Assembly: GCF_002105155.1 (NCBI RefSeq)
Contig: NW_019029002.1
Coordinates: 186,001-250,000 of the forward strand
DNA: 64,000 bases
From: Lobosporangium transversale
Taxonomy: Eukaryota
Direction of reading: 5' to 3'
The notes below the pieces were generated by a model. It saw only the letters and a list, made by a program, of their open reading frames with translations, searched no databases and was not told the origin of the DNA. A program made the translations under genes and the position numbers. Below are positions 27,455 through 59,110 of this stretch, one piece after another; position 1 is the first letter of the stretch, and each line of letters begins with the position of its first letter.

Positions 27455-28003
27455 GGCGACTGTTCGATGCTTGTTGGTTTTCCAAATCTGCTTTGATTTC
27501 ACCATAGTTTAGCGGAATTGATTAGCATCCCCTGAATGGCTGCCATCCAAGGGACTAACTTCGAATGGACAGGATTTACTGTGTTGTTCAAAACAATAAA
27601 ACTTGACTGAAAGTCTGCTAATCCTCAAACTATGAGGCAAATAATGCCTCTGAACGCTTCAATAGGATTATGGCGAGTTTTTGGGGTGCAGAAAAGACAA
27701 GATTGTATCTTTTGAGCAATGAAGGATATAGGATTTGTTCCTTGGAGGCAAACTTTTTTGAAACCACGCTTGTTGCTAGTAAAAACACAAATGGTTCCCG
27801 TTTTCCGCATACTTTCAACGCTTCCACAATCCAAGGGCTGTGATGTAGCCATTAAATGTTACATGTTTGTCGAAGTATTGACACATCCCTTGCAAAAGTT
27901 CAGATGTATGCTAAGAATATTGTTTAAGGGACGTAGAGTAGTCAATAGCATGTGGCAGTATTCAGGTGTTTATACAGTATCAGATGGAGTCCGAACAGTC
28001 GCC
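27455..28003. repeat. E1 right long direct repeat (549 bp) with 12-bp TIRs
   Basis: Near-identical to 17530-18079. Confidence 0.95.
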
Positions 28004-34436: not shown

Positions 34437-35363
34437 CACGGCTCCGGCGACGATGTAGCTGTGCTGATCGATCCACTTTATTATACTGTCAAGGTTGAGG
34501 TTATCGATTTCGCAATGGATGACCAAGGTCTATAATAAGGCTAGGCAGGCCTATAACTCGTGATACCAATGCAAGAGAAGTTGAGAAAGGACAACCCTGG
34601 ACTGCAAATGCTGTATAGTTGTGCTTCTCTATGCGATCAATGTCGCGCTGCGATATGTCTGTCGGTTCAGTATCCTCAAGCTTATACGTTTTGGTTGGAA
34701 TTCATTTTTATTTTTGAGTGTTGTGGGTGCATACTAATAAAAACTACCTTTGCTGGTATATGTATTTATACATCAGCAATAAATATTAAAGAGTTTTCGC
34801 AGATTTTTTTTTCGTCATTTTCATCACAGGCAATTGAACCTTATTTTCGCCAGTTTGAAAAATACTGCGGTACTGTGATATCACGTTGGTGAAAAGAAAA
34901 TTTCCAAAAACGTCGCTTGATGTTAAATTCATCAGGAGAATTCTATTAAACGCTCACATCACCAATCACGCATCACGCTCATTCTGGCGGTCAAAAAAGA
35001 AAGAACACCAGACAAAAAAAATATCAATAAATTGGAAAAACTAAACATTGGAAAAGTTGACCACGCCAATGCCTCCAAAAAAAAAAAAAAAAAAAAAAAA
35101 GGCTGACAATGCCTTCCATCTGCATCTTCTGCTACCCATGATTTCATAATAACCATCTCTCAATAGCTGCAAGGCTCCTGTAAGCACAATGCGCATCCGC
35201 CCTTCCTTGTTAAGCTACGACGGTATCCAATCATGTGGCTGTATTTTACGTGTCAAGAAAAGCGTGTCAAGAAAAGCGCACTGACTTTTTTTTTTTTTTT
35301 TTTTTTTTCTCATATTTACATTCCATTTCACTCATTTTCATCGACCTTTCATTTTTTCTAATC

Positions 35364-36203
35364 ATGAATCCTATTCATCGCTTGGCCCAGGTGTTTGCCC
35401 ACCTCCGGGCTCAAGCTTTTGCTACGACATCAGCTTCATCTCCAATGTCTCGTATGGTTTCTGTTTCTACTTCTACATCCTCTCTCTATCGTAACTATAC
35501 CTCGTCCTCATCTTCCCCTACTTCAAACAAAGGTGCTGCTGATTCTACCACTACTGCCGCGACCACTCCAAAGGCTCACAAGGTCACCAAAAAGGACCGC
35601 GCCTTTTACCCTTATTCCCTTGACATCCAATCCCGTTGGGCAGACAATGATCAATACGGTCACCTCAACAATACTTATTATTATGCTCTCTTTGACACGG
35701 TGATAAACACATTCCTCATCCAAGAGGCAGGATTAGACCCACATAACCAAAGTCAGGGCACAGCCATTGGCGTAGCCGCTGAGTCAGGTTGTCAATATTT
35801 TGATTCCCTTTCGTTCCCAGACATGATCGAGGCACGATTAGCTGTGATCAAATTGGGACGATCCAGTGTTGTCTATCAGGTTGGTATTTTCAAGAAACTT
35901 TCGCTTACACAACGACAACAACAACAACAAGAAGGAGGAGGAGAAGCAGGAGCAGGAGGTAATACGGTTACTCGAGGTGCATCTCCATCGTCCGCAGGAG
36001 TATTTTCGAGAGCTGCGACATCAGTCTTGGATCCTGTAAAGGAAGCAGATATCGACAAGGTATTCCATCCGAACCAGCTTCAGGGAGATGTGGCAGCAGC
36101 TGGACATTTCTGTCATGTCTTTGTGGACAAGAACAGTCGTCGGCCTGTTCCGATCCCTGAAAGGATCCGTGCCGGATTAGAACGTCTTCAAGTGACACCA
36201 TGA
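35364..36203 (+). CDS. Hotdog-fold acyl-CoA thioesterase (4HBT/YbgC-like)
   Basis: IQSRWADNDQYGHLNNTYYY, KLGRSSVVYQVGIF, AAGHFCHVFVD...RPVPIP. Confidence 0.9.
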   Translation: MNPIHRLAQVFAHLRAQAFATTSASSPMSRMVSVSTSTSSLYRNYTSSSSSPTSNKGAADSTTTAATTPKAHKVTKKDRAFYPYSLDIQSRWADNDQYGHLNNTYYYALFDTVINTFLIQEAGLDPHNQSQGTAIGVAAESGCQYFDSLSFPDMIEARLAVIKLGRSSVVYQVGIFKKLSLTQRQQQQQEGGGEAGAGGNTVTRGASPSSAGVFSRAATSVLDPVKEADIDKVFHPNQLQGDVAAAGHFCHVFVDKNSRRPVPIPERIRAGLERLQVTP

Positions 36204-37073: not shown

Positions 37074-39728
37074 TTAAAGATTACGAATTGTGTTGCGCCC
37101 AGCACTTCTTCTCTCTCTGCGTTGAGGTCCACCACCACTTTCGCCTCCATTCCTTGATGATGATGATGTTGATGATTTTGTATTACCACGACCACCCTTG
37201 CCTCCACGTCCCTTGACCTGGAATGACATCTCCATACCACCAGCAGTCGAACGTGAGACTGAATTGTCACTGCCTCTATCCTTTGCAACACGTTCTGCAA
37301 AAGATCTCTGAGCTTGTGATTTGAGTACGGGTCCTGAACTGTTTCCTGCTCGTTGCTATCAATAATGAAAATTAGTTCGGTTAGAAATACTCCTTATCGA
37401 GTTCACGCCTTTTTTTTTTTTTTTTTTTTTTTGTCTTGTCATATTGTGTATGTACCTTGAGTGCCTCCATCTTGGGAATGCGTTTACGGTCCTTGACTCC
37501 GGAACGAATCGATGTAATTTGATCCGCCTTCTTCTTCTTATTGTTATTATCCCGATCTGACTTGTAATGACTAACACGGATCAAATCCTCATCTGAATCC
37601 ACATCGCTACCATCACTGTTGCTAACCTCGCTAGCCTCCTCGATCTCATCCTCGCCCACAACGCGGTAGCTAGGCTTCGCAGTTGATTTCACAGGGTTGA
37701 GCAACTTGTATTCGTTCGTATCCTCATCCACCTGGAAATCAGGGTTGGTGAACAGATCTGCGAAACGGCTATCCTTCAGGGCTCCGCCTTCTGTGGCCGC
37801 CTCAGGAAGAGCACCATCTCCAGAAGCTGCAGCCTTGCGACGAGCCTTGGCCTCATCCAACATCATCTTGGTCGCCAATTGTTTGTTGACCTTGGGAAGC
37901 TTCATCGTCGCACGAATACGAGAACCAGCCTCCTTGGCCAACTTCTCCTTTGCTTCTCTCTCCCGGTAATCTGCATACGCGAATGGATTGGCGATTGCCT
38001 TGGCCTTCTCATAGAGTCGTAGGTCAATGAAGAATCCATGCATGTAAGGCTTCAATACAGAGCTTCCAACCAAATGATCCAATCCCAGCCTATATGTTAT
38101 CATATTCAACAAAGAATTAAAGCGTTCATTAGTTAGCCACATTAACAAGATCGGTCATCTATCAATAAGGACCTGAATAAAATGCAATAGCAAACAAACA
38201 AACAAACAAACGAAAAAAGAAAAAAAAAAAAATCATATACGTACGAGGCAAGTTCCTTGCGTGTAACAAACTTGTAATCGTCATAGATATTCTGAACAGG
38301 ATTCTCTTCCAATTCTTCTGTGAGGTTATCGAGGAAGGAACACCATTTTGGTGCTGGTCCCAATGAAGGGATATAATAACTCTGCATCTGAATACCCTCA
38401 TTCGCCACAAACATCAATCCCGAATTATCGACCACGCACACATCATTGATATCGTTGACAGGTTCGATCGATGTGAAATTATTGCCATTTTCTCTGTCCC
38501 AAATCTTGATAATCTTACAATCGGCCGAGACCACTTTAGTACGACCGTCCTCACCCTGGGTACCCTCATGGAATGTCAAACTCTTGATAGGGAAGCCATA
38601 TTGATGATCCTTGACAAAGAGGGGAATACTGCTACGAAGATCATACATGAGCACATGTCCTGTGGTCGTACCAACAGCCATCGTTAATCCATCCTCTCTG
38701 AATTTCATGGAGGAGATACCGAGGGAGGAGGACATGACACTCTCGGGTAAAGAGGGTGCCAGCACTCCAACTCGACCTCTGACACGCAAATCCCAGAATT
38801 CGACTGTTCCTGCATCTGTTCCACATCCGTAGAGTAAATGAGCAGGGTTGATCTCTCCACAGTTGACTCCATTGCCTCCAGTGGGGTCGATGTCTGTGAC
38901 GAGTGAGTTCAAGAACCGTCCTTGTTCCAGATTCAGTCGATAGATTTCATTAGAGGATGCTGTGACGAGAAGATCGCATGAAGGGTAATGATAGGTAAGA
39001 GAACGTCCGAATTTAGGGATCCTGGTTCTGAAATGAAGTCCTCCTTGAGCCTGAAACTCAATACTCCGATCGGCTTGAAGGTGTACAGTCTTTGTCCAAT
39101 CGTCCGATAGGATCTGAAAGTCGACATTCTCCGCATCAGTATGACGATCAAACTTCATGGACATTTCTGAATACTCGTATACTCTCATCTGAGGCTTATA
39201 GACACCTTTATTTATTTAAATAAATAATAAATAAAAAAAATTAGTTATAAAACAGAAAAATAAAATAGGACTTGAACCCTAGATGCGGGGGTAAAAAAAC
39301 TTACCAGTAGCGATAGCATATTTCCCATCCCGAGTCGTTTTGATCTTGAGTGATGCTTCTGGGAATTCGAAATCCTGAATGAGCTCGATACGATGCCTCC
39401 ATTCTTTTTTTTTTTTTTTTTATTTTTTTTTTTATTTTAAAAATAAAATAAAAATCATATTAACACTTGATGGCATTATTAAAAAGAACTTCATGATAGT
39501 ATAAAGAATCTCTAACCCTATTTCCCTATTTCTTTGTCTTTTTTCTTTTTTTTTTTTTTTTTTTCCTTTTCATCACCACTCCTTCCTAGATAAAGGATTG
39601 GTACCTAAATCATTCTTGAGTGCTTTCTTGTTCCGTCTAGCAAGCCAGTCAGGTATGGACCGTGAGCCTTTTGAACCCGAAACTGTGTAAATCTTGACAT
39701 TGTTTGCATTCTGAACTTGCAATGACAT
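37074..39728 (-). CDS. ENP2: Ribosome biogenesis WD40 protein ENP2/NOL10, multi-exon
   Basis: RIELIQDFEFPEAS, YRLNLEQGRFL, IPSLGPAPKWCSFLDNLTEELEE, YMHGFFIDLRLY, DSRFADLFTNPDFQVDE. Confidence 0.95.
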
Positions 39729-40267: not shown

Positions 40268-40948
40268 TTAAACAGTACTGATCCTCAGTGTAGGCAATCT
40301 CTCTTTAAGCATCGCTTTCAACTTTTGAATCTCCTCCAGGTGTTCTGCTCGTGCCAGGCAATGGCTGTAAAGGCCAAACTTCCGCAACGGCAGCATTAGT
40401 TGCTTACTATGTAGCAGATGGTCCACCAGAAGCTTAAACATCTCCAAATTAAAATGCATCAAGGAATCGGACGACGACATATGGAAAGGCATTACCTTTA
40501 GGATAAATAAATATCATAAGCCTTTCCAACATGCAACGTCCTTTCAGCAGTACCGTTTGCTCTCGGATTTCTGTAACACTTTCAATAACTGTGGCGAATT
40601 CACAAGAGCTTGGTGATCCATAGAGAAGCTCCAGCGACCTCAGTGTTCGAACCAGTGGTAGTTTGTCGTCAAATACTCTTTCAAGTAATGTACCAACTAT
40701 GAAGGTTCCGAGTGTAAGCTCTACAAGGTTGGGGCAGCAGACGAGAAGATTACTGAAATGGGACACTGCAGAGGGGTTACTGAAATTAATTCTGATCAAG
40801 TGAAGGCTTCGAAGGTTTGGTGCCATTGCAAAAGTCGAAATGTTGACACGGGAGAAAAGGTTCTCAAAATATCTGAGTTTCATCGATTGGATACGTGCGT
40901 TGCTAATGAGCTGAATAAGTGGATTGAACCGGCGACCGCGATTGATAA
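40268..40948 (-). pseudogene. 3' half of a Mortierellaceae-type LRR/RNI-like gene interrupted by E2
   Basis: INRGRRFNPLIQLISNARIQSM...LRSLHL...CPNLVELTL; continues the frame of 52045-53980 once E2 is removed. Confidence 0.8.
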
Positions 40949-41464
40949 GGCGGACATCCGAACCCGAGAAGTTGCCCAAAATACAAATAAATGTAAGATA
41001 TTCGAAGGTCCAAGCTACATCCGAAGGCTCTCAGAAAGTAAGTTGTTGCCATAACTAATCTTTTAAAATATATTCTGATGAATAGATGCGAGACTCGAGC
41101 AACAAATCTAATTAAAAACATTCTAACTATCACAAAGCTGAAGTCCTTTTGCCCGGTGATTTGATAGGCTGTTTAAAATTTATTTATTAAAGACATTGAC
41201 TACTTATCTGAGGATAGACTTCATGTGAGACACTGATGCGGCTGGTCAACCTATAACCAGACCAACAGACACCACTGCTGCCTTCGGATTATAATGCCAA
41301 ACACCCAATACATATACTACGGGTTCATTAAAACACACTGTTCGGCCTGCAGCCCACTAATATCAAACACTCCCAAATTGGGCATCTCTTTTTTAAAAAG
41401 TGCGATTAAATTCGAACAGGATTTATCTGGGTGGCCAAATCAGTTTCGAGCTCGGATGTCCGCC
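40949..41464. repeat. E2 left long direct repeat (516 bp) with 13-bp TIRs GGCGGACATCCGA...TCGGATGTCCGCC
   Basis: Only one substitution noticed versus 51529-52044. Confidence 0.97.
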
Positions 41465-41557
41465 TTGTGGTATCCCTTCTTTCGTTTTCGGTCCTCATGA
41501 TACCCGAATTCTCATATGATAACACATTCCTACGGAAGAAGGGATAGTTAAACTAGA

Positions 41558-42943
41558 TCAAAACTCGCGTTTGGAGTTCCAGTAGTCATCAATGGCGCGA
41601 GTCTGATTAAAGCTGCTGAGTGGCTCCCATGAATTGTCACATTTATTGTAGCCCTTCCATTGAACAAGATATTCTACTCCATCCCCTTCTCCTCGGTGCT
41701 CTATTATCTTTTTGATTTCATATGCAGTTTCTATATTGCTATCACCCATTTCATGATCGTTGTCAACATTTGAGGTAGTAGTGATACCGAGATTTAAAAA
41801 AGCATCCTGAAGCTGATACATGCTTCGAGCATCTTTGATTTCTACAACATAGCTTGGAGCAGTGGGAATTTGAGAAATGTTTGCCTCAGTGCCATCTGGA
41901 TAGTCGAAGTTCTCTTGCATCCAGAAGCTGTGATGTGGCTCTATAGTTATATTACGTAAGGCAACCATGCGTTTGATATTGAGAAGTAGGCAGCATAGCT
42001 TAAATTGCAGAGAGAAAATACTCTTTTCAGATACCCTCTTCACCACAGTATGACTGAATTTGGTGAAGATGGTCTGCATTTCTCCGAAATAACTTTCAAT
42101 CCTAGAACGAAAACTCCCAACCATTTCGTTATACTTTTTTTCCTGGTCTGTAAATGCTATCCCTCTTGTCTTGCGGACTGGACAGCAGAAGTTTGTTGAT
42201 TCCAGTTGGTCACTGTGTTCAATGATCCCATGTAGGAATTGCGAATAGCCTCCATCCAGGGTAATACAGTCAAGGCGATCGATTTTCTTCTCAATGGCCA
42301 TTTTGGAGAGCATGGTTCCATCACTAAAATCACGGCATTCGGCGGGTTGTGATACAAACACAATCATGCTATTCATATCACAGCATACTTGTGTGCGGAA
42401 CCCAGACTTTTTGAGTTTGTATGAATACAAACTGGCTTTATCTGCATTTAGGTATGCCACTCGACTATCATGGCCATCGATGTGAAGTGTAATATGTTTG
42501 AACTCCTCTGGGTTGATGGATCGTGATGTGAGCAGACGCAAGGTAATACTTGAGGACATGTTAGCAAGACAGGACGTTAACTTTGAATCCAGGGTATGTG
42601 TTTCCCTGCCAAAAAAATCTTTATACACATCATGGAATGAACTCTTGGGTAAAAATACACTCATCTCAGAGGTCGAAACCCCTTTCAATAACATGTACAG
42701 TATTAGGATGCCTTTCTCAACATTTCTGTAAGGGCCAGGATAATTCCTCGTGCCAAAAATCACTGTCAAGAAAAAGAACACTGGAACGATGCCCAGACGG
42801 TGCTGCACAAAGTCTTTGGCCTTCTCTATATTTTCCACACTCTTGATCTCAGTACGGTGGAATTTGCTCCGCTTCAAAATGGGCCAGTCCTGGTGCAGGA
42901 ATCCCCATTGAGTTGATATCAATCTGTCAAACTCTGCATCCAT
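41558..42943 (-). CDS. PIF/Harbinger-type DDE transposase with C-terminal chromodomain
   Basis: LHIDGHD, ITLDGGY, FRSRIESYFGE; YEIKKIIEHR...EYLVQWKGYNKCDNSWEP chromodomain; intact 461 aa. Confidence 0.9.
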   Translation of the reverse strand: MDAEFDRLISTQWGFLHQDWPILKRSKFHRTEIKSVENIEKAKDFVQHRLGIVPVFFFLTVIFGTRNYPGPYRNVEKGILILYMLLKGVSTSEMSVFLPKSSFHDVYKDFFGRETHTLDSKLTSCLANMSSSITLRLLTSRSINPEEFKHITLHIDGHDSRVAYLNADKASLYSYKLKKSGFRTQVCCDMNSMIVFVSQPAECRDFSDGTMLSKMAIEKKIDRLDCITLDGGYSQFLHGIIEHSDQLESTNFCCPVRKTRGIAFTDQEKKYNEMVGSFRSRIESYFGEMQTIFTKFSHTVVKRVSEKSIFSLQFKLCCLLLNIKRMVALRNITIEPHHSFWMQENFDYPDGTEANISQIPTAPSYVVEIKDARSMYQLQDAFLNLGITTTSNVDNDHEMGDSNIETAYEIKKIIEHRGEGDGVEYLVQWKGYNKCDNSWEPLSSFNQTRAIDDYWNSKREF

Positions 42944-43008
42944 TGTATAACATCACTAGCTATTATAGATATATATTCATTTAAAGATTATATTTTGGGA
43001 TTTGCTCT

Positions 43009-43090
43009 GCGGACCAGGGGCCAACTTGCAAGCTCTCTCTTAGAAAAGAATTTGTAAGTTGGCCCCGGATAAACTGGTCGGGTAAATATG
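43009..43090 (+). repeat. E2 hairpin site 1 (orientation A, 'flip' core)
   Basis: GCGGACCA-GGGGCCAACTT-GCAAGCTCTCTCTTAGAAAAGAATTTGT-AAGTTGGCCCC-GGATAAACT...GGGTAAATATG. Confidence 0.95.
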
Positions 43091-43386
43091 TTAAAAAATA
43101 AAAAGATAGCCCTCGGGAGGGAGCAGGCGAGTGGCAGACGAGAGATACGTTATACTCGACTTTTTAATAAAAGCGGAAATAGGCACATTTTTAAATCAAA
43201 ATCTTGTGTTCTTTATTTTTAAAAAGTGCATAACATATAATGCAGTCAGCGCGAGGTCATTGAGTGTTGGTGTTGTAGATGCGAGTGATATATTCGATCA
43301 TCTCCTCCTCAGTCTTCTTTTCCTACCGAAGGTCCTATCCACTAAGCGTGGGGCTGGAGGATTGCAGAATGCTGTGGGCCTTCAGG

Positions 43387-44170
43387 CTAATCGCTTTCTG
43401 GGCTGGGAGCAACAGCAGGAGTGGTGGCAGTGGCTGGACTGGCAGCGGCAGCTGGGCCGTCCCTAGTATAGGTATGGAAAACCTTTGTGATATACCCAAT
43501 CATCTCAGCTTCAGTGTTATTCTCGCTTCGAAGTACAAAGCTACGGTTATTAAGCTTGATCGGGGCATCTTTGTCGCGCCTCATATGCTGAATGACATTA
43601 TCTCCTCTTGGCGACGGATCAAATCGCAACTCCTTAACCTCAATAGCATCAAGCTCAGGGTTGTCGGTAATAAATTGCTTGACTCTACCGTCGATAAGCT
43701 TCCGTTGTTGAGCAAAGATGCGAAATCCTCCAACTGGCAATGGTTGAGGCTTCTGGAACTTTAAAACAACAAAGATCTCCTGGTCTTTAGATGGACGCGG
43801 TAAAACTCGATTCTGGTTGGCTTCTTGGAGTGCGCGCTCGCAGTTGACAAAGGCATCTTTAACGTTCTGCAGTTCGAGCTTAGTCTCAGCGTGGCTAGAT
43901 AACTCCTTATCAAGCTCCGCCTTGGTCCCTTGGCGCGCATACTCACTGTTGGCAAGAGCGAGTTTAGAGTTTTTCAACTCCAGTTCTTTCTCTTCCAAAT
44001 TGGATAGAGCTGTGTCAAGATCCGATTGAGTGGATTCCAGGTCATCCTTGGCATCCATAAGGTCTAGCTGCGTATTTCGGAGTTCAAGTGAGGGCTGCAA
44101 CCTTCTCTTGCAGTCTTTCAATACTGGACTCTTGTGCTGGTCTGGCGGGTCTGGTGGTGGTGGTGGTCAT
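43387..44170 (-). CDS. Coiled-coil + DUF3627-like protein; apparent frameshift near 44090
   Basis: ATG 44170 gives MTTTTTRPARPAQESSIERLQEKVAAL, which shifts into LELRNTQLDL...; homolog of 23058-23621. Confidence 0.65.
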
Positions 44171-44506
44171 AGTTCAAAATTGTTTTTTGGGTGAAGTAAT
44201 TAAGAAAGTTTTGAGTGGCATAATTTCAAAAGGCCACGGTTTAAATTGCAAATTTCGACAGAAATTGGTTGAGCTGGCATAATTTAATTGGTTCAGGTAA
44301 GGAAAATTGGGAAGGAAAAGAGGTGATTTGGCAGAATTCCATTGGACGAATTTTTTTTTTAAAAAAAGAAAAGGAAGGAAAAGGAAGCAAACTCACGTCA
44401 CAGGGTGAAGGATTTTATTTTAATGACTTTAAAAAGCACTATCTCGTTTTGGCGAACCTGAGCCACAGCCGGAAATTTTTTTTTCGGTGCATTTGAACAG
44501 CTTCAT

Positions 44507-44600
44507 GCGCACGGGCCAGGCTTGGCGGTGGCCAACTTACAAATTCTTTTCTAAGAGAGAGCTTGCAAGTTGGCCACCGGCTAAACTACGGGTAAATATG
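44507..44600 (+). repeat. E2 hairpin site 2 (orientation A, 'flop' core)
   Basis: GCGCACGG...CGGTGGCCAACTT-ACAAATTCTTTTCTAAGAGAGAGCTTGC-AAGTTGGCCACCG-GCTAAACTACGGGTAAATATG. Confidence 0.95.
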
Positions 44601-44847
44601 GTGACTGGATCGCACGGCCACCACTACCACCACTTTTTTGCATTTTTAAAAAAAAAAAAAAAAATTTATTACTGAGATGTCGATTGTGTTACCATTCGCC
44701 TCCAGAAATAAATGCTCTTGAAGACCAGCTCAAATTCCATATAAATACACCCAACTTGTGGAGGACCTTTTCTGCTCTATTTAATTCTATTTTCTAAATA
44801 CGACAATTAAAAAGGTGACCAACATTTGCATCATTGCGTGGTGGATT

Positions 44848-45016
44848 GGACGTATCTGGCACGATCTGGACTAATAATTAGCGAAGCCACTTCTTAGCGA
44901 CAGCCGTGGACAGCACGTGACAATCCTGTCGGGGTATGGACATATCTGGCACAATCTGGACTAACAGTTGGCAAGCCACCTTTTAGCGACAGTTGTGGAC
45001 AGCATGCGACAATCCC
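44848..45016. repeat. Imperfect 90-bp tandem duplication upstream of the E2 cargo gene
   Basis: GGAC.TATCTGGCAC.ATCTGGACTAA...AAGCCAC...TTAGCGACAG..GTGGACAGCA.G.GACAATCC starting at 44848 and 44938. Confidence 0.85.
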
Positions 45017-45353
45017 GGGTAGCAAAATTTCTTTCACTACGCCACAAAGAAACAAATGCTGATGTCTGGCAAGAAATTTGCGACCGTAAATTTATAAACA
45101 TTTAAGCTGTCACAATAAAACTCTCATGGAATTTTTTTTGGAAAAATGCATTTGAAGTATGTGGGACCTAATCAATATGTCTTTTTTTGAAATTTTAGAT
45201 ATAACAGTCACAAATGTGACATGATGCTAAAAATAGATGGTTTTTTTTTGAAAAAAGAAAAATTCTCACACTTCTTCTCACACTTCTTCTCACACTTCTA
45301 CAACTTTTCAATCACACACTTTATTCCCAAGTTTTCCTTTCGCCCTGAAAATA

Positions 45354-47208
45354 ATGATTTCAAAAGCAGAATTTCTCCGCAACACCAAGGCAACTGAGCC
45401 CTATCACATTATTGAACCATTCGTACGATTATTTGGAATTAAGGATACAGAAGAATTTTTAAGTGTTATTTCCGCCGCCTTGACGGAGCTCCTTGATGTA
45501 AATTACGACAATAATGACCAGGAACTATATCAACAATGCAAACGCTACGCTCGATGGAAACAAGTTGTTGAGGTATAGAGGCCCGAGATAGTATTAAATA
45601 ATTCATATTTGAACGCCTCTAATGTATGACCAAGCAGACCGTAACACGATCTCTTATTGTTATTTATAGTCAAAGACATTCCGCACGTCTTGTACCAAAT
45701 TTTTCGCTAAGAAGACTGCCGCCGCGACGTCTACCCCTGCTACCACTGCCAACACATTTCGTCGCTCGGACCGAATTAAGGAGATCCAGTCACCAGCAGC
45801 GCCTGTGAAATCCCTAACTGAGGAGGAAATACGGATTGATGGATTATTTTTAAAAAAAGACACGGAAACGATCGGACAAAGGATCAAACAGAGAGCTCTG
45901 GACCTAGAAGCTACTGTAACATCACCTGAGTTCAAAGATGTACACGAGCGCCGGATCTTTTCTCTTGGAGCCTCGTCAATTCTGGATCTAGTAGATATGT
46001 CAAACGAGAGTCAGCTTTTCGATGTATTTCCCAGTAAGAGTGATCAGGATGAGTTAATGACGATGTTTGCTCATCTAAGCATGAAGAGATCCATTAATGC
46101 ACCTGAACCAACTGAGTTGCTGACACATTGGGATATCTGCAGTGCGATTGCTTCTAAAGATGGGCTTGCTGAAGCACGATCCTACCTATATCGAGAGATG
46201 GGAGCCTGTCTGCCGAGCTTTGCGGAGAATCTCAAGCCTCTCCTGATAATGATTGACGCCCTCCTATGTTATCCCAAGATATTTGCACAAGAGTATGACG
46301 TAACGGAGCAGGACTTAATGAATGTTCTTTGGAGCCCGATGCTGTCTTCCTTATTTCTCCGGCAGCAGAGTGAAACTGGGATTAGGATAAAAGGAGGAGA
46401 TTCGACACAGGTAGCGTCAAACATCGAGAAAAGAGAATTCTACGATGACGGACACGCTATTGCCTTCAAAATAGATTCTCGGATCATAATAGATGTTTCC
46501 CGAAAGGGTGAAATCGACATTGCAGCCGTCGAGGTTGCTCCCAATTGCCAAGAGACCAAAATTTTTTCAGATGGGGCCAAAGTCCTCCGAGAGGCGAAGG
46601 AGATAGTAAATGGCTTGACCAAAATTTTTCCGGATGACGAAAACTTTCTCAAGAATACGATTGGTTACGGCGTTCAGATAGGGAATCTGTCTGGGTCGAT
46701 ATTTTCTCTGCATCTAGTTGCTCCGAAGCTATATGTAGCATGGCCAGAACATACATTCTGCCTTCCTGATTCACGAGGATCCTTGGATCGATTCAAGGAA
46801 GTCATTATAGCACTATCTTGGTTTCAACAGGCCGTCCAAGGCACCGCCATGAATATCAAATCAGCTCTTTCAGTGCAGAAAACAGTCGGAGCACTCTATG
46901 GCCACGGCTACAGCCATAAACCACTGGGTCAAAAGCAGTGGACTAACCCAACCTGGTTTGAACCATCAAAACCATCTAAGGCTCGGCCAATCCAGGAATT
47001 AATGAGGGTGGTGCACCCCATTCAGACTGCAATTAGTCCTCAATCAAGCGAAGACCTAAATAAGCAAACCCATGCGAATGCTACATATGACAGTAATGGA
47101 TGGGCCATTGTAGTGGCCAAAGATGGCCGACCAATGTACTTTAACAAGCATACACTGCAGTATCTTGAGGAACGTGGTGGCAAAAAAGCCAAAATGGACG
47201 TAGCTTAA
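45354..47208 (+). CDS. E2 cargo: putative PD-(D/E)XK/REase-fold protein with WW-like C-terminus (intron 45573-45669)
   Basis: Exon 1 splices in frame into ORF 45805-47208; EQDL...LWSPML, FKIDSRII...EIDIAAVEVA...KIFSDGAKVLREAK; tail NGWAIVVAKDGRPMYFNKHT. Confidence 0.6.
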
Positions 47209-48017
47209 TATATCAGGTAATCTATACTCTTGCTTTTCATACATGCATCTGACGTTATTCTACTTGAATTCAGTCTTGTTTTTTTTTTAAAAAAAAAAAA
47301 AAACAAAGGGTATTTTCTCGCTTCGCATTTGTATTTTCTTCTGATATTCAGATAGCATAGTGAGACCTGCACCCAATCTTATGTAGAAGTATTCCTGTTT
47401 TACGAAATAAATCAGCCATTCACAAAGACTTAGCATATCTGGTGTCCTCGAGACTCACGAGGACGAAGTGCGGGGAAGCAGCTGTGGTCGAAAGCCATTG
47501 TCTTTTTTTTAAAAAAAAATGTAACCCGAGACTTTTCGAATTAATGGATGCCTGGGCTCCAACTGCTGGGCCGCTCCCAAAGCTATGTAAGACTCGCTTC
47601 GGCCTCTTCCACTTTTTTTTCAGCCAAGGCTCGCGAGAGCGCATATATCCAATAAGCGGAAGAAATTATTTGACAAGGGTCCCAATCAGTCAGCTCAACT
47701 TTGATATTGGATCCCGGATGTCCAAAATGGCCCACGATAATTCCAATAAAATAACAAGATATTTTCAAAAATCCGGAAGATTACGTCTTTGAAAATGCTG
47801 TGCTGTTGGTCATATTATATTTGCATCAGTTCACAGCCCATAATCACCCCGGATCATACTAGGGTCGACACAGACCCGGGGCAGTTTGTTCAGTTGCAAA
47901 AGGATTAGACTGGGATTATAAATTAAAGTTATTTGTATTAATAATAATAAACTTGGGGATTTCTTTTTTTTTAAAATGCAAAAAAGTGGTGATAGTGGAG
48001 GCCTTGTGATCCAGTCC

Positions 48018-48115
48018 CATATTTAGCCGGCCGAAGGACCTGACAGTTTAGCCGGGGCCAACTTGCAAGCTCTCTCTTAGAAAGAAATTTACAAGTTAGC
48101 CCCTGGTCCGTGCGC
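48018..48115 (-). repeat. E2 hairpin site 3 (orientation B, 'flop' core)
   Basis: AGTTTAGCC-GGGGCCAACTT-GCAAGCTCTCTCTTAG...-AAGTTAGCCCC-TGGTCCGTGCGC. Confidence 0.95.
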
Positions 48116-48192
48116 AGGGAATGATTTCAAAAATTAAATAACTGAATATAAATTTTTTATATGTATATACAACAAGACGCACATTATAAACA

Positions 48193-51100
48193 ATGTACAA
48201 ATTTGGAGCCACATTCTACTCGCAAAAGCAACAGGGCCTTAGGCCACAGGCAGCATCTTTCAAGAGAGCTGATGAGGCTCAGAACACATTTCTTGTTGCT
48301 CATCAATTCAAGCTCAACTCGGAGGGCAAACCGCTTTGGGCATTTGGTAGCTACAAAAATCTGCAGAGCTTCCTGGAATGCACAAAGTATGTACCAGCCA
48401 CTGAATGCTTCTTCTTTGAGCAAATCCGCGATGGGACATCTTGCTGGGAATACTACGACCTGGAATGGGATCCCTCAAAGACAGAGGACACTGAGGAGAC
48501 AATCTTCTCAGATTTTTTGCAGCAAAGGAATGCCTTCTGTCTAGAATATGAGGTCTTAGCTTCTGAGTGCCGCATCTTGAGTGCATCAAATGCTGAAAAA
48601 GGGTCAATGCATATCATCTTATCAGGGTCTGGATTCAAGTTCAGAGACAACACATGCCATATGAAAAACTTTATGGACGCCTTCCATTTGATGGTTAAAG
48701 AACATCCACTTTCAAAACACATTGATTGGATTGTCTACACAAAGAATCGAAACTTCAGATGCATCAATAGTGCTAAGCGCCATGATCCAACAAGGGTTCT
48801 CCGACCTGCAATTTGGCACAATGCCTCCTGCTCTGCACCTGAGAGTGAGTTTTTTGTCACCAATGTGAGTGCTGATGCCACAGATATTGTGCATTGTCAT
48901 CTTGCAGCAAGCAAAGGTGCTAGAAATAAAGTACCTCAAGTACAGGGGTCTGAGCAGGATCAAGACCAAGAGCAAAACGAAAAGTTGCCACCTAGTGTGA
49001 TTAAAGCAATAAATACCATGCTTGCAAATATGGATTGCTTGTCACAGTTCAAGATTGGCGAATCTCATAACAATCGTATGCACCTGAAGCGTATAAGATC
49101 AGGGCACTGTCAAATATGTAATAGGATCCACGACAATGACAATGCATATGTGACAATTGCAGATCAGGGGAAAGTGTACCTCCACTGCTATAGGGTGGAT
49201 GCAAATTCCAGGCGTGATGGACTTCAAATTGGCAAACTGGATTTTCCAAGCATGATCGCACTTCGAGTACATAGGGCACAGACCAATCAAGAAGAAACAA
49301 TCACTGCGAACAAACATTGCTCACTTCGCCATTTGGAGTATAAGAAAGTTATGAAGCTGCTGCAAAACCAGAAACAGAGTCTTGTGATCCGCAGTGAACC
49401 AGACACTGCTAAGACCTCTTTTGTTGAAAGTTTTATGGATAGGCACAAGAACTTAGCATACATTTTTGTGTCTCCTCGACAATCACTAGCACGCAATCTA
49501 GAGAAGCGCCTTGAGCTAAGGAGCTATCTTAGTTTCCCTGGGCCTGTCTCTGGGAAGCGCGTGATCATTCAAGCTGAGTCCTTATATAAGCTTGACCTTG
49601 AATACTATAGCATGGATGTGGTCCTGGTCTTGGATGAGGTCTGCTCTATTTTTGAACAGATGACAAGTGTGGGCACCATGAAAGGCCGCCATGGCGCAAA
49701 CAATCAAGTCCTAGAAGAACTTATGCGCAAGTCCAAGAGGGTAATTGCCTTGGATGCTGATGTGACAGACCGAGAGGCTGAAATCATCAAGTCTGTGAGG
49801 AGCGATGTTTTTGTCATTCACAACACTTTCAAGCCACAGCAAGGGCATCAAGTTGTGTGCTTCCAGCATAAAGAAGTCTTAGAGTCTCATGTTATTGATC
49901 TTGTAAAATCTGGTCATAAGGTCTGGATATCAACCACACACTCAGCTGAAGATGCCGAGACCCTGCATAAGACACTGCAGAAAATGGGCAGAAGGGGTGT
50001 CTGTATCACAAAGAACACATCTGATGCTGATAAGATTGGCATCTCACAAAATATCAACAAAATTGTGCTGGACCTTGACTATTTCATTCACACTCCGACC
50101 ATCACAGTTGGTATAGACTGCAATGTGAAGCATTTCAACTATGTCGTGGGGTTCTTTGAAGCACAAACTGGCGTCATTGTTGAAACATGTAGACAGATGT
50201 TGCGACGACCGCGAAATGTCAGCACTCAAAAATATCTCATCTATATCAAAAATGTAACTAGCAATCTACCCACCACTTTCAGAGAGATTGTTGAGTATAT
50301 GGAAAGCCAGGAAGTGCGACTGAATGGATGTGAATTAGACATAAGTGGATTTCCTTATATATCTCAAATGGGTCAGCCTCCATCCGTTGACTTGAAAGTG
50401 CTATATGCATTAATATACATGCAGACACTCATCAAGAAGCACTTGACAAAGAATGACTTTTATCAACGCTTTATTGACCAAATGGTCCAAGTTGGCTGCA
50501 GTGTACAGGAAGCTGACTCGCATCTGTGTAAAAACGATGAATATACTGTGGAACTAAACCAAAACAAGAAAGAGCTGCTACATATCAAGTACACAGGAAT
50601 TTCGAAAGCTAGGGTCCTTGATACTGAGGAGTTTTCTCGGTTAGATGTACAAAACAGTCGAACACAGGAGGAACAATATGCTGTGACGAAGTATAAGCTA
50701 ATGGAGACCTACAGTGTACAAGATGCATCTCTTTTGACTCCTGATTGGGTTGAGAAATATGACAAACCTCGAGAGAAGAAGATCTATAAGAATCTTGCTA
50801 TGTTGAAAGAGGACCCCACACTTCAAATCTTGCGACAAGAAGATAGATTGGGTCTCAAATGTGGCAAAGCTACAGTTGGGGTTCACACACTGGGAAATTC
50901 GAGATACCTCAGGTTTAAGTATGCAAAAGACATTCTTGACAGCTGTGGATTTGATTCGCCATTTGATGACAGAGAGATGTCAGCTGAGGAGCTCAAGAGA
51001 AAAATAGATCTTCGTTGGTCAGATTTGGTCAAGGACGGAAGTATGAGAGACATCTGCACTCAGCTGGGGATTAGATGCCCCTCACACAACAATTGGGACT

Positions 51101-51249
51101 TCAAAAATAAGAAAAGCTTTTTGAATAGTGTGTTGAACGAGATTTGGGGGATCCACATAGTCAGAACTGATCACAAGTCGCATCATTATTATATCAAGTA
51201 TATGACAGAGGTTGGTAAACACAAAGATGACTTTTTCATGACACAGTAG
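48193..51249 (+). CDS. AEP primase-polymerase + Zn finger + UL9-like SF2 helicase fusion (1018 aa, intronless)
   Basis: EYYDLEW, GSMHII, HIDWIVYTKNRNFRCINSAK; CQICNRIHDNDN...LHCYR; SEPDTAKTS (degenerate Walker A), LVLDEV, HTPTITVGID, RQMLRRPR. Confidence 0.88.
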   Translation: MYKFGATFYSQKQQGLRPQAASFKRADEAQNTFLVAHQFKLNSEGKPLWAFGSYKNLQSFLECTKYVPATECFFFEQIRDGTSCWEYYDLEWDPSKTEDTEETIFSDFLQQRNAFCLEYEVLASECRILSASNAEKGSMHIILSGSGFKFRDNTCHMKNFMDAFHLMVKEHPLSKHIDWIVYTKNRNFRCINSAKRHDPTRVLRPAIWHNASCSAPESEFFVTNVSADATDIVHCHLAASKGARNKVPQVQGSEQDQDQEQNEKLPPSVIKAINTMLANMDCLSQFKIGESHNNRMHLKRIRSGHCQICNRIHDNDNAYVTIADQGKVYLHCYRVDANSRRDGLQIGKLDFPSMIALRVHRAQTNQEETITANKHCSLRHLEYKKVMKLLQNQKQSLVIRSEPDTAKTSFVESFMDRHKNLAYIFVSPRQSLARNLEKRLELRSYLSFPGPVSGKRVIIQAESLYKLDLEYYSMDVVLVLDEVCSIFEQMTSVGTMKGRHGANNQVLEELMRKSKRVIALDADVTDREAEIIKSVRSDVFVIHNTFKPQQGHQVVCFQHKEVLESHVIDLVKSGHKVWISTTHSAEDAETLHKTLQKMGRRGVCITKNTSDADKIGISQNINKIVLDLDYFIHTPTITVGIDCNVKHFNYVVGFFEAQTGVIVETCRQMLRRPRNVSTQKYLIYIKNVTSNLPTTFREIVEYMESQEVRLNGCELDISGFPYISQMGQPPSVDLKVLYALIYMQTLIKKHLTKNDFYQRFIDQMVQVGCSVQEADSHLCKNDEYTVELNQNKKELLHIKYTGISKARVLDTEEFSRLDVQNSRTQEEQYAVTKYKLMETYSVQDASLLTPDWVEKYDKPREKKIYKNLAMLKEDPTLQILRQEDRLGLKCGKATVGVHTLGNSRYLRFKYAKDILDSCGFDSPFDDREMSAEELKRKIDLRWSDLVKDGSMRDICTQLGIRCPSHNNWDFKNKKSFLNSVLNEIWGIHIVRTDHKSHHYYIKYMTEVGKHKDDFFMTQ

Positions 51250-51423
51250 GCTTGTATATAATGATTTTTAAAAAAGTGGCGTCCTTCAGTCAAGATTTAG
51301 AAGATGGATTCAAGTATAGTTCATGTAATATTACCATCTGGGTAACCAATCAGAGCAGGCTAATAGGCTAATAGGCTAATATATTATTTGAGTTACTACT
51401 GAGGACTATATAACCGGGAGTAA

Positions 51424-51494
51424 CATTTAGCCGGGGCCAACTTACAAATTCTTTTCTAAGAGAGAGCTTGCAAGTTGGCCCCTGGTGCGTGCGC
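51424..51494 (-). repeat. E2 hairpin site 4 (orientation B, 'flip' core)
   Basis: CATTTAGCC-GGGGCCAACTT-ACAAATTCTTTTCTAAGAGAGAGCTTGC-AAGTTGGCCCC-TGGTGCGTGCGC, 34 bp before the right direct repeat. Confidence 0.95.
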
Positions 51495-51528
51495 AGGGCT
51501 TGACTCACCCTCCAAAAGAAATTGGGAA

Positions 51529-52044
51529 GGCGGACATCCGAACCCGAGAAGTTGCCCAAAATACAAATAAATGTAAGATATTCGAAGGTCCAAGCTACAT
51601 CCGAAGGCTCTCAGAAAGTAAGTTGTTGCCATAACTAATCTTTTAAAATATATTCTGATGAATAGATGCGAGACTCGAGCAACAAATCTAATTAAAAACA
51701 TTCTAACTATCACAAAGCTGAAGTCCTTTTGCCCGGTGATTTGATAGGCTGTTTAAAATTTATTTATTAAAGACATTGACTACTTATCTGAGGATAGACT
51801 TCATGTGAGACACTGATGCGGCTGGTCAACCTATAACCAGACCAACAGACACCACTGCTGCCTTCGGATTATAATGCCAAACACCCAATACATATACTAC
51901 GGGTTCATTAAAACACACTGTTCGGCCTGCAGCTCACTAATATCAAACACTCCCAAATTGGGCATCTCTTTTTTAAAAAGTGCGATTAAATTCGAACAGG
52001 ATTTATCTGGGTGGCCAAATCAGTTTCGAGCTCGGATGTCCGCC
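51529..52044. repeat. E2 right long direct repeat (516 bp) with 13-bp TIRs
   Basis: Near-identical to 40949-41464; followed by TAA. Confidence 0.97.
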
Positions 52045-53505
52045 TAATGTCAGGTGTTGGTCGTCGAAGATACTCTCCGTCCACGCAGAGGCGGACAAGG
52101 TTTGATGTAGTAGCAGCCGTTGCAAATTCTCAAAAGTCCTCCATTGTTGCGTCCCACCCGAATTTGAAAGTCAACTCCTGGATACCGCGCGCTTGGACCA
52201 TGACTTCATAAAACTCCTTTGCTTGTACTGACGATCTGAGACTAGTGTCGATGCTACCATGCTGCTCATCATATTCGCCGCCGTTAGCTGCAACGATCTC
52301 CTTGAACCGCTATACTACTGATTCCCTGTAGCTCTCTCGATAGTGGTCGAAACATACCCATTTGACATGGCCCTCAAGAGTGACAATGCGATATAGGTTA
52401 CCGAGGGTACGGCTCTGGTTGTGGGCCAGCAAAAACGATTGGAGCCGCCGTAGGTCTGCCCCTTCAAGCACTTCTGATTTCCCGATCATTGCCTGGCCCG
52501 CAATGTTATTAATACCACCATCGGCTTCCTGATGATTGTTTTGGAAGTAATTGATTGATTCATCCACAAGTAATACGATCCCGTGCCCTGACACCTTCAC
52601 TACACCTCTCGCTACATCAATCCAGTCTGAGATGTCGAGTTGAGCCAATGGAGGCAAGACAAAGCCAGCAGCAAGGACTCCGTATTTAAGTATCTGTAGC
52701 ATTGTCAATACATAGGATCCGTACTTCTCAAAGAACTCTGCGGGTCGGTCGATATTATACCCTTCATGCTTTGCCAGATGTATATGGTGCGGGATATTGC
52801 TCTTGGATGGCTTCGTGTGACCGCCACACTTACGCAGGAAGAACAACCGAAACTGGTATGCAAATGGTTTCCCTAGCTTATCAAGGGGTCCTGTAAGCTT
52901 TGGGAGGACGATGAACAGTCTGGGGATTGGGTATTCGTGCAATTCGTAGGTCTGAGTGATGGGAGCTTGCACTCGGCTTTGAATGATGGCTAGCCTGTCC
53001 AGAACCTGTTTCTGCATCTGCAACATCTCACTCTGTTTATTCTGCAAAAGCTGCAGTTCCTCCCTATTCTTCTTTATCTCTTGTTGCATCTGCTGTCGAA
53101 GGGCTTTGATGAGCTCGGTGTCTTCTCGCTGCTGACTAAAATGTACTGCCATGGTTGCTTTGAGCCATAACATCGGTTTGATTCATTTGGATCACCTCCG
53201 TTGATTTAGAGTGAGAGCTGTCGATGCAGTTATTCTGAAAGGATGGCGGTTGGACATTAGTGTCCATAGCACTGGGAAGAAGGGTCAGTTTGGGTCCCTC
53301 CAAAAGCTTGTCTGAGATGGGAAGGTCCCCAATGTGCTTTGACATTGCACTCGTTAGTGCTTCGGCGGAGGATGCTTTTAAGAACGCATGAAAAGGTGAA
53401 AGGGGTACCTCAGAGGTGGCGTTGATACGAGCTGGCGCGCTGACCACGACTTGCAAGGTAGTCCCTGGTCGATATTGGACCCTTAAAGGAACAAGACTAA
53501 AAGGA

Positions 53506-53536
<31 letters not shown>

Positions 53537-53980
53537 GATTGAAAGGAGAAGAAATGTGCGTTTTTGCACGTCGAACAGTTAACGCTGTGTCAATTCTGCA
53601 TTTATTCTGCCTTTGTTCTGCCTGCTTTATGGATCCCTCCTCCCCTGTGATTTAACAAGCTGATTCAGAAAATGAGGAGGCTTTATGGTATAGCATACTC
53701 TTCACAGTTTTGACCAGTCAGTCATAAAGAGTATGACTTGGGCATGATCCAAAAGGTATTCCGCGTTTTTAAAGACTTGTTGGAGATCTTTCCACATTAT
53801 CAGTTGATGGCCTGTCTCTTTGTCAGCTCTTGTCTGAATAGAAAAGATTACGTCCGAGAGTGGACGAAGATCAGAGATTGAGATGGCTATGAATGCCTGT
53901 TGAGGCAGCGTAGTGGTTACTGTATCTGTGTCTGTATCTGTGTCTGTATCTGTGTCTGTATCCGTATCTGTAGGAGCCAT
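52045..53980 (-). pseudogene. 5' half of the E2-interrupted Mortierellaceae-expanded gene; in-frame stops and a frameshift
   Basis: MAPTDTDTD...LIMWKDLQQVFKNA; ITQTYELHEYPIPRLFIVLP; HLAKHEGY; LEGADLRRL...LGNLYRIVTLEGHVKWVC; stops at ~52310 (TAG) and ~52130 (TGA). Confidence 0.8.
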
Positions 53981-54954: not shown

Positions 54955-56692
54955 GGGAAGGGGTTTTGGTAGGTAAACTGCATTAGAAATCAAGACGAGA
55001 GAGATGTAAACAGATTCATAGTCAAAGTAGGCTAAGAGGTTTTTTTGTTTTTTGTTGCAACAGAGCTTTTGAGAGCGAATTATGAAGAACAACTGTCGAG
55101 CAGGGCTGTTCAAGACAGGCGGATGTATGTATATACAATGTTATAAATGTACATGTATATAATATACATTATAAATAATCTATATATGTCTGTATATATA
55201 AATGATGCGAAGACTTTCTGAATTCAGAAAAGTAGATGTTTAAATATATATTTGTGATTGCCAAATTAGTAGAGAGGCAAGTGGGTAGGGGATCTGTAAA
55301 GTGCTCAAGAGGAGTCATCAATGTCAAAAGAACGAGAATGACAAAAGAAAATAATAAAGGTAAGAAAAAAAAAAAAAGGAGAGAGAGAGAGAGAGAGATG
55401 ACGAGAAATGAGGAAAAGGGTTTCTGTAGCCCTCTTTCATTGGGTACACTTCAGGAGGACAAACGCGTAAGGGCGGCAAGGGGTTGTTTACAGAAAAAGG
55501 AACGGGTCCATCATATCACAAGCTGTACATGTACACAAGAAAAGAAAGAAAGAAAGAAGGAAAGAAAAAAAAAGGGTCTTGAGCAGTTTATGCAGATCAA
55601 ATGATATTGGTTACTTTTTCACATTGCAGCAAGCAGCGAGTCAGAATGGTCTTTTTTATTTTATTTTTTCATTGCTCTCGCTCTCATGGACTCCAATTGA
55701 CTGTGATGGACAACCAGACGGCCGTAACAGAGGCAGGTTATCCAAATAGAGACAAACCTCTCTCTACTTTACACTTTCTTGGGAGGATAGAATCCATGTC
55801 GATCTTTGTGAGTACCTTTTCTTTTACAGATCCACAAATCCACAAATCCGTTGAAAGAGCTGACAAAACTGACAGACAAAAACAGAGAAGACCTTCATCA
55901 TCAATGCTCTTTTTGGAAAAGAAAATAAAAAAAATAAAAAAAAAAAAAATGATGGTGGTGGCTGGCTCAGTTGGGTTGCATCTTTCGTTTATTTATACAG
56001 TAAAACTATATTGCGATTACCATGCATATATACATGTTGTATACACATCCAACGAGTTTTGCTGGAGGAAAGAAAGAAAGATGAAAAAAAAAAAAAAAAA
56101 AAAAGACATGGGCAGTAGATGTTTTTTGTCACCAATAGGGCGTTTCTACAAATACAGACGTATACATGTACAGTATAGACAGATATATCTACATGTCTAT
56201 ATACTAAGGATGTCTATTTGTCAAACAAGGAATTCGATGTCGGATGGATGTGCTCCAACGTGTTTGCAGCCACATGGCTTATTTGCACATCTCTTTGTCT
56301 TACTATTTTTGGTCTCTTTCCTCTATCTCTTTCCTTTTTCTTTTCTCTTCTCTCTTTTCTCATCCTCGTTTAATTTCTATTTCCTCCTTCTCCCATGCAT
56401 CCAAATCCATTCCCCAACACCCTTCCCTAGAAAAAAAAGTCTTCTCAACCTTGTTTCTTGCATGTCTCCTTAATTTTTATTTTATTTTATTTATTCTTTA
56501 TTTTATTTTATTTTTTTATTTCTCTTTTCTTTTCTTTTCTTTTCTTTAGTGTATTTCACTTTACCCCATCTCATTACTTTCAGTTTTTTTTTATTCTCAC
56601 CTTCACTTTGACATTCACACATTCAGATTCAGATTCAGATTCAGATTCAGATTCAGATTCAGATTCAGATTCAGATTCAGATTCATTTAATA

Positions 56693-57330
56693 ATGTTTCA
56701 GGCCGATAATTACATTTCATTTCATGACCTCAGTCCCGAGGCACGCATCCTTTGGGTGTCACCGTCCATGATGGATGTGCTCGGGTATTCGTCAGAGGAT
56801 GTGGTTGGACGGAATGCATATGATATCATTTATCCGGATGACCACACCCAGGGGCGAGTGGTTCATAAGGAGAATGTGATGAATGACTTTGTGGCCAGTC
56901 AGGTCGTCCTTCGATACAAGGCCAAGGACGGTCGAGCTGTGCCCTGTGTAGCAGTCTTCAGTCTCTGCTATGACTTTATCCTCAATTGTTCCACCCTTGT
57001 CGATCCAAGTGCTGCTGCCTGTGAGTTTTCTTTTTCTTTTCTTTCCCTTTCCCTTTCCCTTTTCTACCTTATCCTCACTCAATCCTCAATCAATCCTCAA
57101 CCAACCCGTAACTGGTTTTTTATTATTATTATTATTATTATTGTTGATTCAGGTCCCTTTGAGGACCGTTTTTATCCAAAGGATATCACTGGTTAAATTT
57201 CTTTTTTTGTTCTAGTCTCCTATTTTCTTTTTTTTTTTTTTTTCTTCTTGACCAATTGGGAGAGGATTGCTTGTCCAAAGGTTGAAGCATTTAACAACAT
57301 AGTATCAGAAAACTCAAACTGACAATGTCC

Positions 57331-57364
<34 letters not shown>

Positions 57365-58963: not shown

Positions 58964-59110
58964 TCCTAATCGAATTTGAATAAAATAAAATAAAATAATA
59001 AAAAAACGTGTCGTATATGTGATATATATATATTATACATGTATAGTTCAAGAAAGAAAAAGAAAAGGCAAGCAATGTTGCTTATGCTGTGTTTGTTTAT
59101 AGCCGGAAAG

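Follow-up and report, generated by a model that had tools for sequence, protein, structure and literature searches.

Two LTR-like elements with a transposase and a primase-helicase in Lobosporangium transversale: candidates for integrated, self-replicating DNA circles

How does an element that encodes no reverse transcriptase come to be flanked by two near-identical long direct repeats, each of which carries inverted repeats at its own ends? The window analysed here, the whole stretch of 64,000 nucleotides from the soil fungus Lobosporangium transversale (Mortierellaceae), raises this question twice, in elements A and B.

17530..28003: element A, 10,474 bp, the older of the two and in partial decay
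17530..18079, + strand: left terminal direct repeat of A, 550 bp, 12-bp terminal inverted repeats (TIRs)
27455..28003, + strand: right terminal direct repeat of A, 549 bp, 12-bp TIRs
40949..52044: element B, 11,096 bp, repeat-internal-repeat, delimited by self-comparison
40949..41464, + strand: left terminal direct repeat of B, 516 bp, 13-bp TIRs
51529..52044, + strand: right terminal direct repeat of B, 516 bp, one mismatch relative to the left repeat

The first-pass annotation had described four terminal repeats, each bounded by an inverted repeat of 12-13 bp, and this description proved exact: the coordinates were correct, and a perfect TIR was present at both ends of all four repeats (13 bp in B and 12 bp in A). 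An exact 13-bp inverted repeat at two fixed ends has a probability of about 2e-8. A consensus TIR word built from the repeat ends was found at nine sites in the window with up to one mismatch, comprising the eight ends and one stray site; shuffled controls gave a mean of 2.0 and a maximum of 7 sites. The two repeats of B were 99.8% identical over 516 bp, and those of A were 97.6% identical, with 13 differences consisting of 11 transitions, one transversion, and one indel. Between the two elements, the repeats were unrelated beyond the TIR, and common matches were limited to chance-level stretches of 10-13 bp. The annotation had also reported neither TG...CA termini nor RT, gag, or integrase genes, which is borne out here: the repeat termini were GG..CC, and RT, gag, and rve domains were absent from the 48 ORFs scanned, out of 96 window ORFs of at least 100 aa and including every such ORF inside A and B. 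An LTR retrotransposon was rejected on these two grounds. The proposed resemblance to bacterial composite transposons held for the layout and failed for the Tn10 type, which was rejected because the repeats (516-550 bp) are themselves non-coding and the transposase gene is located between them.

The insertion of B could be read directly from the host gene that it interrupts.

40277..40948, - strand: 3' portion of the host gene that B interrupts, matching homolog P0289 residues 577-687 and 1153-1212
40946..40948, + strand: left copy (TAA) of the B target site duplication
52045..52047, + strand: right copy (TAA) of the B target site duplication
52048..53908, - strand: 5' part of the interrupted host gene, matching P0289 residues 9-576, with two in-frame stops

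P0289, a paralog of the interrupted gene, was collinear across B: its residues as far as 576 aligned to the right flank and the following ones to the left flank, without a gap when one TAA was counted. Since collinearity is obtained with one TAA removed, all 11,096 bp of B entered via the outer ends with a 3-bp duplication, and B is a single-unit insertion into a host exon at a TAA site. At A, a target duplication was absent (outer flanks TAC and AAT), and a reading-frame test around the element gave no decisive interrupted gene. The trinucleotides flanking the individual repeats were TAA/TTG and GAA/TAA in B and TAC/ATA and TAA/AAT in A; none of the four repeats had a duplication on both sides, the inner junctions lacked duplications, and no third or solo copy of either repeat was found within the 64-kb window. 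Movement of a single repeat as a MITE, which had been suggested earlier, was not seen on either count.

Illumina contigs of run X1, which may be the window's own source, split and rejoined at the repeat ends of B, and these breaks argue against the repeats being an assembly artefact. The X1 depth, a weak measure from a run that is not independent, was 214.7 on the B repeat, 102-138 inside B, and 105 and 85 on the flanks. The value on the repeat, compared with 85-138 around it, suggests close to two repeat copies, and the depth inside B, being near that of the flanks, suggests no clear excess of circles. This read-contig evidence covers the region of element B. Run X13 was rejected as empty-site evidence, since its C>T/G>A pattern suggests a converted library and pieces of the element are present in it.

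The internal region of each element encodes a transposase and a large primase-helicase.

18173..19600, + strand: A transposase, DDE_Tnp_4 and chromodomain, open frame
41558..42943, - strand: B transposase, DDE_Tnp_4 (D159, D233, and E286 in P0003) and C-terminal chromodomain, open frame
19771..22933, - strand: A primase-helicase, frame broken near 22710
48193..51249, + strand: B primase-helicase, 1018 aa, with a PrimPol-type AEP, a UL52-like zinc finger, and a UL9/CyRepA1-type SF2 helicase; open frame, variant Walker A

The transposases of A and B were 50% identical. DDE_Tnp_4 was matched in 59 of 59 aligned homologs and the chromodomain in 55, no invariant histidine was present between D233 and E286, and the IS5 HMM matched weakly. 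Its predicted sequence identifies the protein as a DDE enzyme of the IS5/PIF-Harbinger type that also carries a chromodomain. The best named homologs belonged to Mortierellaceae, and others were found in Apophysomyces, Rhizomucor, and Rhizopus. No relative was found in IMG/VR, and a metagenome scan with a single transposase as the query returned no match. In GTDB, two short contigs binned as Bacilli MAGs (L095 and L096) hold transposases that are 34-41% identical.

The primase-helicases (about 1020 aa) were 45-46% identical between A and B. The top Foldseek matches of the structure model (pLDDT 86) were HSV-1 UL9 on oriS (E 7e-17) and human PrimPol (E 1e-10, TMt 0.71), and the zinc finger was matched at E 0.002. 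The CyRepA1 plasmid-initiator HMM (NF042913) gave 219.7 bits for A (E 9e-65, above the cutoff of 200) and 196.7 bits for B (E 8e-58, just under it); CyRepA1 is essential for replication of pSYSA (PMC9978351). The primase motifs were intact, and the Walker A motif of B deviated, as it did in two close homologs. The family is large, with 4411 representatives at E up to 0.001, and its nearest Atlas clusters were from Mucoromycota and Nucleocytoviricota. A transposase, coiled-coil, or cargo gene was found beside the helicase in 0 of 50 viral helicase loci. A protein record of L. transversale matched the B helicase over 1018 of 1018 residues and continues into downstream window DNA. Helicases of Gamsiella multidivaricata were 96-98% identical to that of B (window 48193-50358), compared with the far lower identity between A and B, and a contig of run X6 (organism B) differed from the window at 72 letters over 48047-50359. 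Judging from this comparison of helicases, horizontal movement of the B-type helicase appears possible.

The remaining coding content comprised one coiled-coil ORF and one cargo gene per element.

23058..23624, - strand: A coiled-coil ORF
24406..27244, + strand: A cargo gene, Crinkler domain at the N-terminus, downstream part in several broken frames
43387..44166, - strand: B coiled-coil ORF, common to A, no family match, covered by a contig of run X5 (guessed to be RNA)
45304..47216, + strand: B cargo gene, 512-aa exon, no family match

The coiled-coil ORF was common to both elements, the cargo gene differed between them, and in A both the helicase and cargo genes were broken. A contig of X5, a run only guessed as RNA, skips a GT..AG intron at 45571-45667 in the B cargo gene; no X5 contig fell on the transposase or helicase, which is uninformative on their expression. 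No capsid gene was found in the elements. An 80-bp tandem duplication is present in B at 44847-45015. Both elements are located in gene-rich DNA, and the ordinary host genes of the window include those for GMP synthase (4569-5900), MLH1 (10678-11619), a thioesterase (35214-36203), and NOL10 (37381-39215). Tandem paralogous PAS-domain ORFs occupy 55583-62748, with a 261-bp MITE-like inverted-repeat element (61478-61738, 77-nt arms of 91% identity) between PAS-domain genes.

Each element also contained four palindromes of 46-47 bp, each set in an asymmetric conserved frame.

19652..19698, - strand: A palindrome H1
23982..24028, - strand: A palindrome H2
24962..25007, + strand: A palindrome H3
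27365..27411, + strand: A palindrome H4
43019..43064, - strand: B palindrome H1, core 'flip'
44530..44575, - strand: B palindrome H2, 'flop' core that exactly reverse-complements the H1/H4 core
48056..48101, + strand: B palindrome H3, core 'flop', more diverged, folding no better than shuffles
51435..51480, + strand: B palindrome H4, core 'flip'

The orientation was minus, minus, plus, plus in both A and B despite their different gene order. The pattern matched eight sites in the window, all within the elements, compared with 0.15 expected matches, and seven of the eight folded with z below -2.3, the exception being H3 of B. Relative to the frame, the core was flipped in two of B's four palindromes, and that of H2 was the reverse complement of the H1 and H4 core at 46 of 46 positions. 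Flip-flop cores occur at the ends of viruses that replicate through hairpins, and the GC-rich arms and AT-rich core resemble herpes oriS. We infer from these features that the palindromes are candidate replication origins. Inverted repeats of 150 bp around H2 and H3 (44506-44659 and 47960-48116) bracket the B cargo gene like a cassette. In A, the H3 region (24928-25022) follows closely on exon 1 of the cargo gene with the Crinkler domain, and H3 resembles H4 plus its flank (89% over 97 bp).

A wider metagenome scan yielded at least 44 transposase loci, of which 31 close ones were used and 13 (L032-L044) were dropped as distant, with 24-34% over short stretches. Among the 31 close loci listed, the partner of the transposase was a Rep-like ORF in 13, a protein family without assignment in 5, and a UL9-type helicase, a D5 primase-helicase, a coiled-coil ORF, and a Tc1 neighbour in one each; no partner was identifiable in 9. 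Two assemblies yielded L001 and L002, which represent the same 3.46-kb unit in circularly permuted form (99.1-99.5%, periods 3457 and 3468); the closures fall within the transposase and the Rep-like gene. Each contains one 418-bp segment with A's TIR word at both ends. This segment separates the stop of the Rep-like ORF from the start of the transposase and so has the same placement as in A, just upstream of the transposase. Their transposase fell into a five-row clade with that of A (68%, SH-aLRT 99). In the same quick tree, which comprised 40 rows of family members only, A, B, L002, and the models linked to UL9-type and D5 genes formed one clade (SH-aLRT 99), within which L002 grouped with A. 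In gene models of named Mortierellaceae, the transposase is joined to UL9-type (P0286, P0117, and P0059) or Prim-Pol/D5 (P0321) genes, and also to coiled-coil or Crinkler sequences, and the pairing of transposase and replication gene recurs in several genera. The occurrence of different initiators within one transposase clade suggests that initiators have been swapped among close transposases.

The motifs of the Rep-like ORF resemble those of Rep_trans initiators. Foldseek ranked RepDE first (E 3e-3, on a model with pLDDT 55), the Atlas leads stood at 0.85-0.86, and a wide VIA search gave no Rep protein or fold among the best 50 matches. Because of the weak Foldseek score and the lack of a Rep match in VIA, Rep_trans is used here as a tentative label for a predicted initiator. 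Many transposase homologs lie on contigs of 3.2-3.8 kb, the unit size of the L001/L002 circle, and a small element of transposase plus Rep-like gene may be widespread.

The distribution of the repeats was narrower. The paired-repeat form was found in none of the 31 close loci listed, most of them on short contigs, and the integrated paired copies are A and B, both in this window; an A-type TIR unit was present in 2 of the 31, both representing the L001/L002 element. The layout is probably limited to a transposase subclade. Generic GG..CC matches upstream occurred in 8 of 26 loci, near chance (0-0.28), and L004 has a candidate 149-bp inverted-repeat unit flanked by TA (chance 0.18). None of the 31 close loci listed matched the palindrome pattern, not even the helicase-bearing L003; L007 holds a degenerate copy of the palindrome. 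L010, L014, L015, and L016 represent a second layout within the family: they fall into a separate clade and have long inverted ends instead of a TIR unit. In these four, the Rep-like gene is convergent with the transposase, and the contigs have 74-142 bp inverted repeats at or near their ends. L011 closes into a 5.97-kb circle but contains no TIR unit. L009 and L022 were rejected as circles, since their end overlaps were imperfect (94.5 and 98.5%, respectively) and apparently lay in repeated ORFs. The partner in L008, L011, L012, L017, and L022 is a protein family of up to 969 aa without a convincing Pfam match, which may be a fourth initiator type.

The combination of twin repeats, a transposase, and a plasmid- or virus-type replication gene makes it likely that A and B are the integrated form of a DNA circle that would replicate itself. 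The replication genes and palindromes, which the first-pass annotation had not included, point to the likely mechanism. With moderate confidence, we read A and B from their sequences as the integrated form of a plasmid-like circle with one repeat, a repeat that replicative transposition would copy into two upon integration. That the insertion was made by a transposase is shown for B. Recombination between the two repeats would free a one-repeat circle and leave a solo repeat. The primase-helicase would bind the palindromes as origins and replicate the circle; alternatively, it may restart forks at the transfer joint. The transposase would then nick both ends of the single repeat and join them to a TWA target (a Shapiro intermediate), and replication through the repeat would generate a target-repeat-internal-repeat-target cointegrate. 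Each jump would reset the repeats to identity, as reverse transcription does for LTRs, and the chromodomain may steer insertion on chromatin. IS903 of the IS5 family is reported to be able to switch to a replicative mode (PMC3627910, PMC12730594).

A one-repeat circle and its integration had already been proposed from the repeats, and the proposal gains indirect support from the L001/L002 unit and from the repeats, which nearly match their partner in the same element but bear no relation to those of the other element. With the proteins of A and B diverged by half, this contrast suggests that the repeats of each element were reset from one template, for which integration of a one-repeat circle by nicking, strand transfer, and replication would be the simplest route. 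Against the integrated-circle reading stand the lack of a target duplication at A, the deviating Walker A of B, and the broken helicase gene of A. The same holds for the restriction of the paired form to A and B in the material examined, the scarcity of the A-type TIR unit and the lack of the palindrome pattern among the 31 close loci listed, the weak Rep_trans label, and the X1 depth inside B; moreover, a circular contig can also be a collapsed assembly of many integrated repeat-internal-repeat copies.

A different account, which we regard as rather unlikely, makes A and B a composite of the KolobokP kind that moves by cut-and-paste or copy-out via the outermost TIRs, with gene conversion or unequal crossover keeping the repeats alike and the primase-helicase serving as captured cargo or as help in repair. 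PIF/Harbinger elements are classically cut-and-paste, and cut-and-paste from the outer ends explains the junctions of B equally well. Cargo capture does occur here, as seen in the Crinkler-domain gene of A and the other gene of B, and KolobokP retains its layout while, in the published description of its structure, carrying no replication gene (PMC9587614). This account leaves unexplained why three unrelated initiator types recur beside the transposase and swap between sisters, and it offers no explanation for the single-unit circular contigs or the conserved palindromes. More doubtful still is a two-step route, in which a solo repeat that has transposed as a MITE, producing the TAA duplication, becomes the site into which a replicating one-repeat circle recombines, as in translocatable units of the IS26 type and model b1 of KolobokP. 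This route would produce the same final structure including the duplication, is consistent with the circular contigs, and has a parallel in KolobokP, where solo LTDRs are common (PMC9587614, Tables 2-3). It would require many solo targets, whereas the window holds none, and the X1 depth, weak and not independent as it is, fits about two copies of the repeat.

The idea that each locus is a one-off, i.e., an assembly artefact, a decayed LTR retroelement, or a piece of a virus or plasmid captured between two independent MITE insertions, is largely refuted and highly improbable. The helicase family is common to giant viruses, as a captured viral fragment would predict, but the viral helicase loci lacked the transposase throughout and the gene pairing recurs across genera. 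Two diverged elements share the same layout and gene set, their inner junctions carry no duplications, the retroelement genes are missing, and the short-read contigs of X1 support the junctions of B.

If the integrated-circle reading is extended to the relatives, A and B may belong to a class of integrative nuclear plasmids in early-diverging fungi, a proposal that we advance tentatively and with some doubt. Such plasmids would be self-replicating circles with interchangeable initiators (PrimPol-UL9, Prim-Pol-D5, and Rep_trans-like), with a chromodomain PHIS transposase acting as the integrase and a single non-coding TIR unit as the attachment site, would regenerate LTR-like repeats without reverse transcription, and would carry cargo genes and cross genera. 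The authors of the KolobokP study left open how the four-ended layout persists in eukaryotes and whether circles are involved (PMC9587614). An independent lineage in culturable fungi, with an open-frame element and a one-repeat circular relative, makes these questions directly testable. If the circles replicate, they would be hybrids of transposon and plasmid residing in eukaryotic nuclei, a means by which genes move among Mucoromycota, and possibly an episomal replicon for oil-producing Mortierellaceae.

Among known systems, Polinton/Maverick elements and casposons likewise pair an integrating enzyme with the element's own replication enzyme, and they use a family B polymerase, terminal inverted repeats, and a retroviral-type integrase or Cas1. 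The replication protein of A and B is instead an AEP with an SF2 helicase, and no PolB match was found in the scanned element ORFs. The combination of a primase with a UL9-type SF2 helicase is shared with CyRepA1, herpesvirus UL9/oriS, and giant-virus fusions; unlike in those systems, the gene of A and B is located inside a transposase-mobilised nuclear element with predicted origins. IS6/IS26 elements are known for pseudo-compound transposons and translocatable units; they are bacterial, the IS itself encodes the transposase, and they have no replication initiator of their own. A and B share with the pseudo-compound transposons the end copies in direct orientation and, on the integrated-circle reading, would also share a one-copy circle and the cointegrate logic (PMC9587614).

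With PIF/Harbinger (PHIS) elements, A and B share the DDE_Tnp_4 catalytic domain, short TIRs starting with G, and, for B, a TWA duplication (TAA; absent in A), but they differ in having four ends instead of two, a chromodomain fusion, and replication genes (PMC4482050). The Myb/SANT ORF of PIF/Harbinger had no match in element ORFs of at least 100 aa. Harbinger-type elements have been recorded in Mucoromycota without paired repeats or a primase-helicase in the relevant sections of these reports (PMC5751038, PMC9963178, PMC3627910), and a fungal Harbinger-type element with either feature appeared in no title or abstract of the literature searched, a body outside which Repbase and most subscription journals lie; for the layout, it contained KolobokP and a single review in which KolobokP is mentioned.

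The eukaryotic precedent, overlooked by the first-pass annotation, is KolobokP of animals, which has the same LTDR-INT-LTDR layout and which its authors set apart from every other DNA transposon (Kojima and Bao 2022, PMC9587614). In both systems, a DDE transposase region lies between two non-coding long direct repeats, each with short TIRs and RR..YY ends. The TIRs are 11-18 bp long in KolobokP and 12-13 bp in A and B, and the repeats of A and B (516-550 bp) fall between the two KolobokP classes of about 450 and 660 bp; a one-repeat circle is likewise discussed by the KolobokP authors (PMC9587614). KolobokP combines a Kolobok transposase with a His-Me nuclease, measures about 4-4.7 kb in the oyster families, and is distributed over seven animal phyla (PMC9587614). 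A and B, in contrast, are fungal elements of 10.5-11 kb with an IS5/PHIS-type chromodomain transposase, a primase-helicase, palindromes, and cargo. No Pfam match to a His-Me finger nuclease was found in element ORFs of at least 100 aa. By their predicted transposase, with DDE_Tnp_4 in every aligned homolog and no invariant histidine, A and B are not KolobokP. The twin-repeat layout, so far described only for that unrelated animal transposon, most likely arose independently in A and B, where it is coupled to replication initiators; TIR-bounded terminal direct repeats would thus have originated a second time, in fungi.
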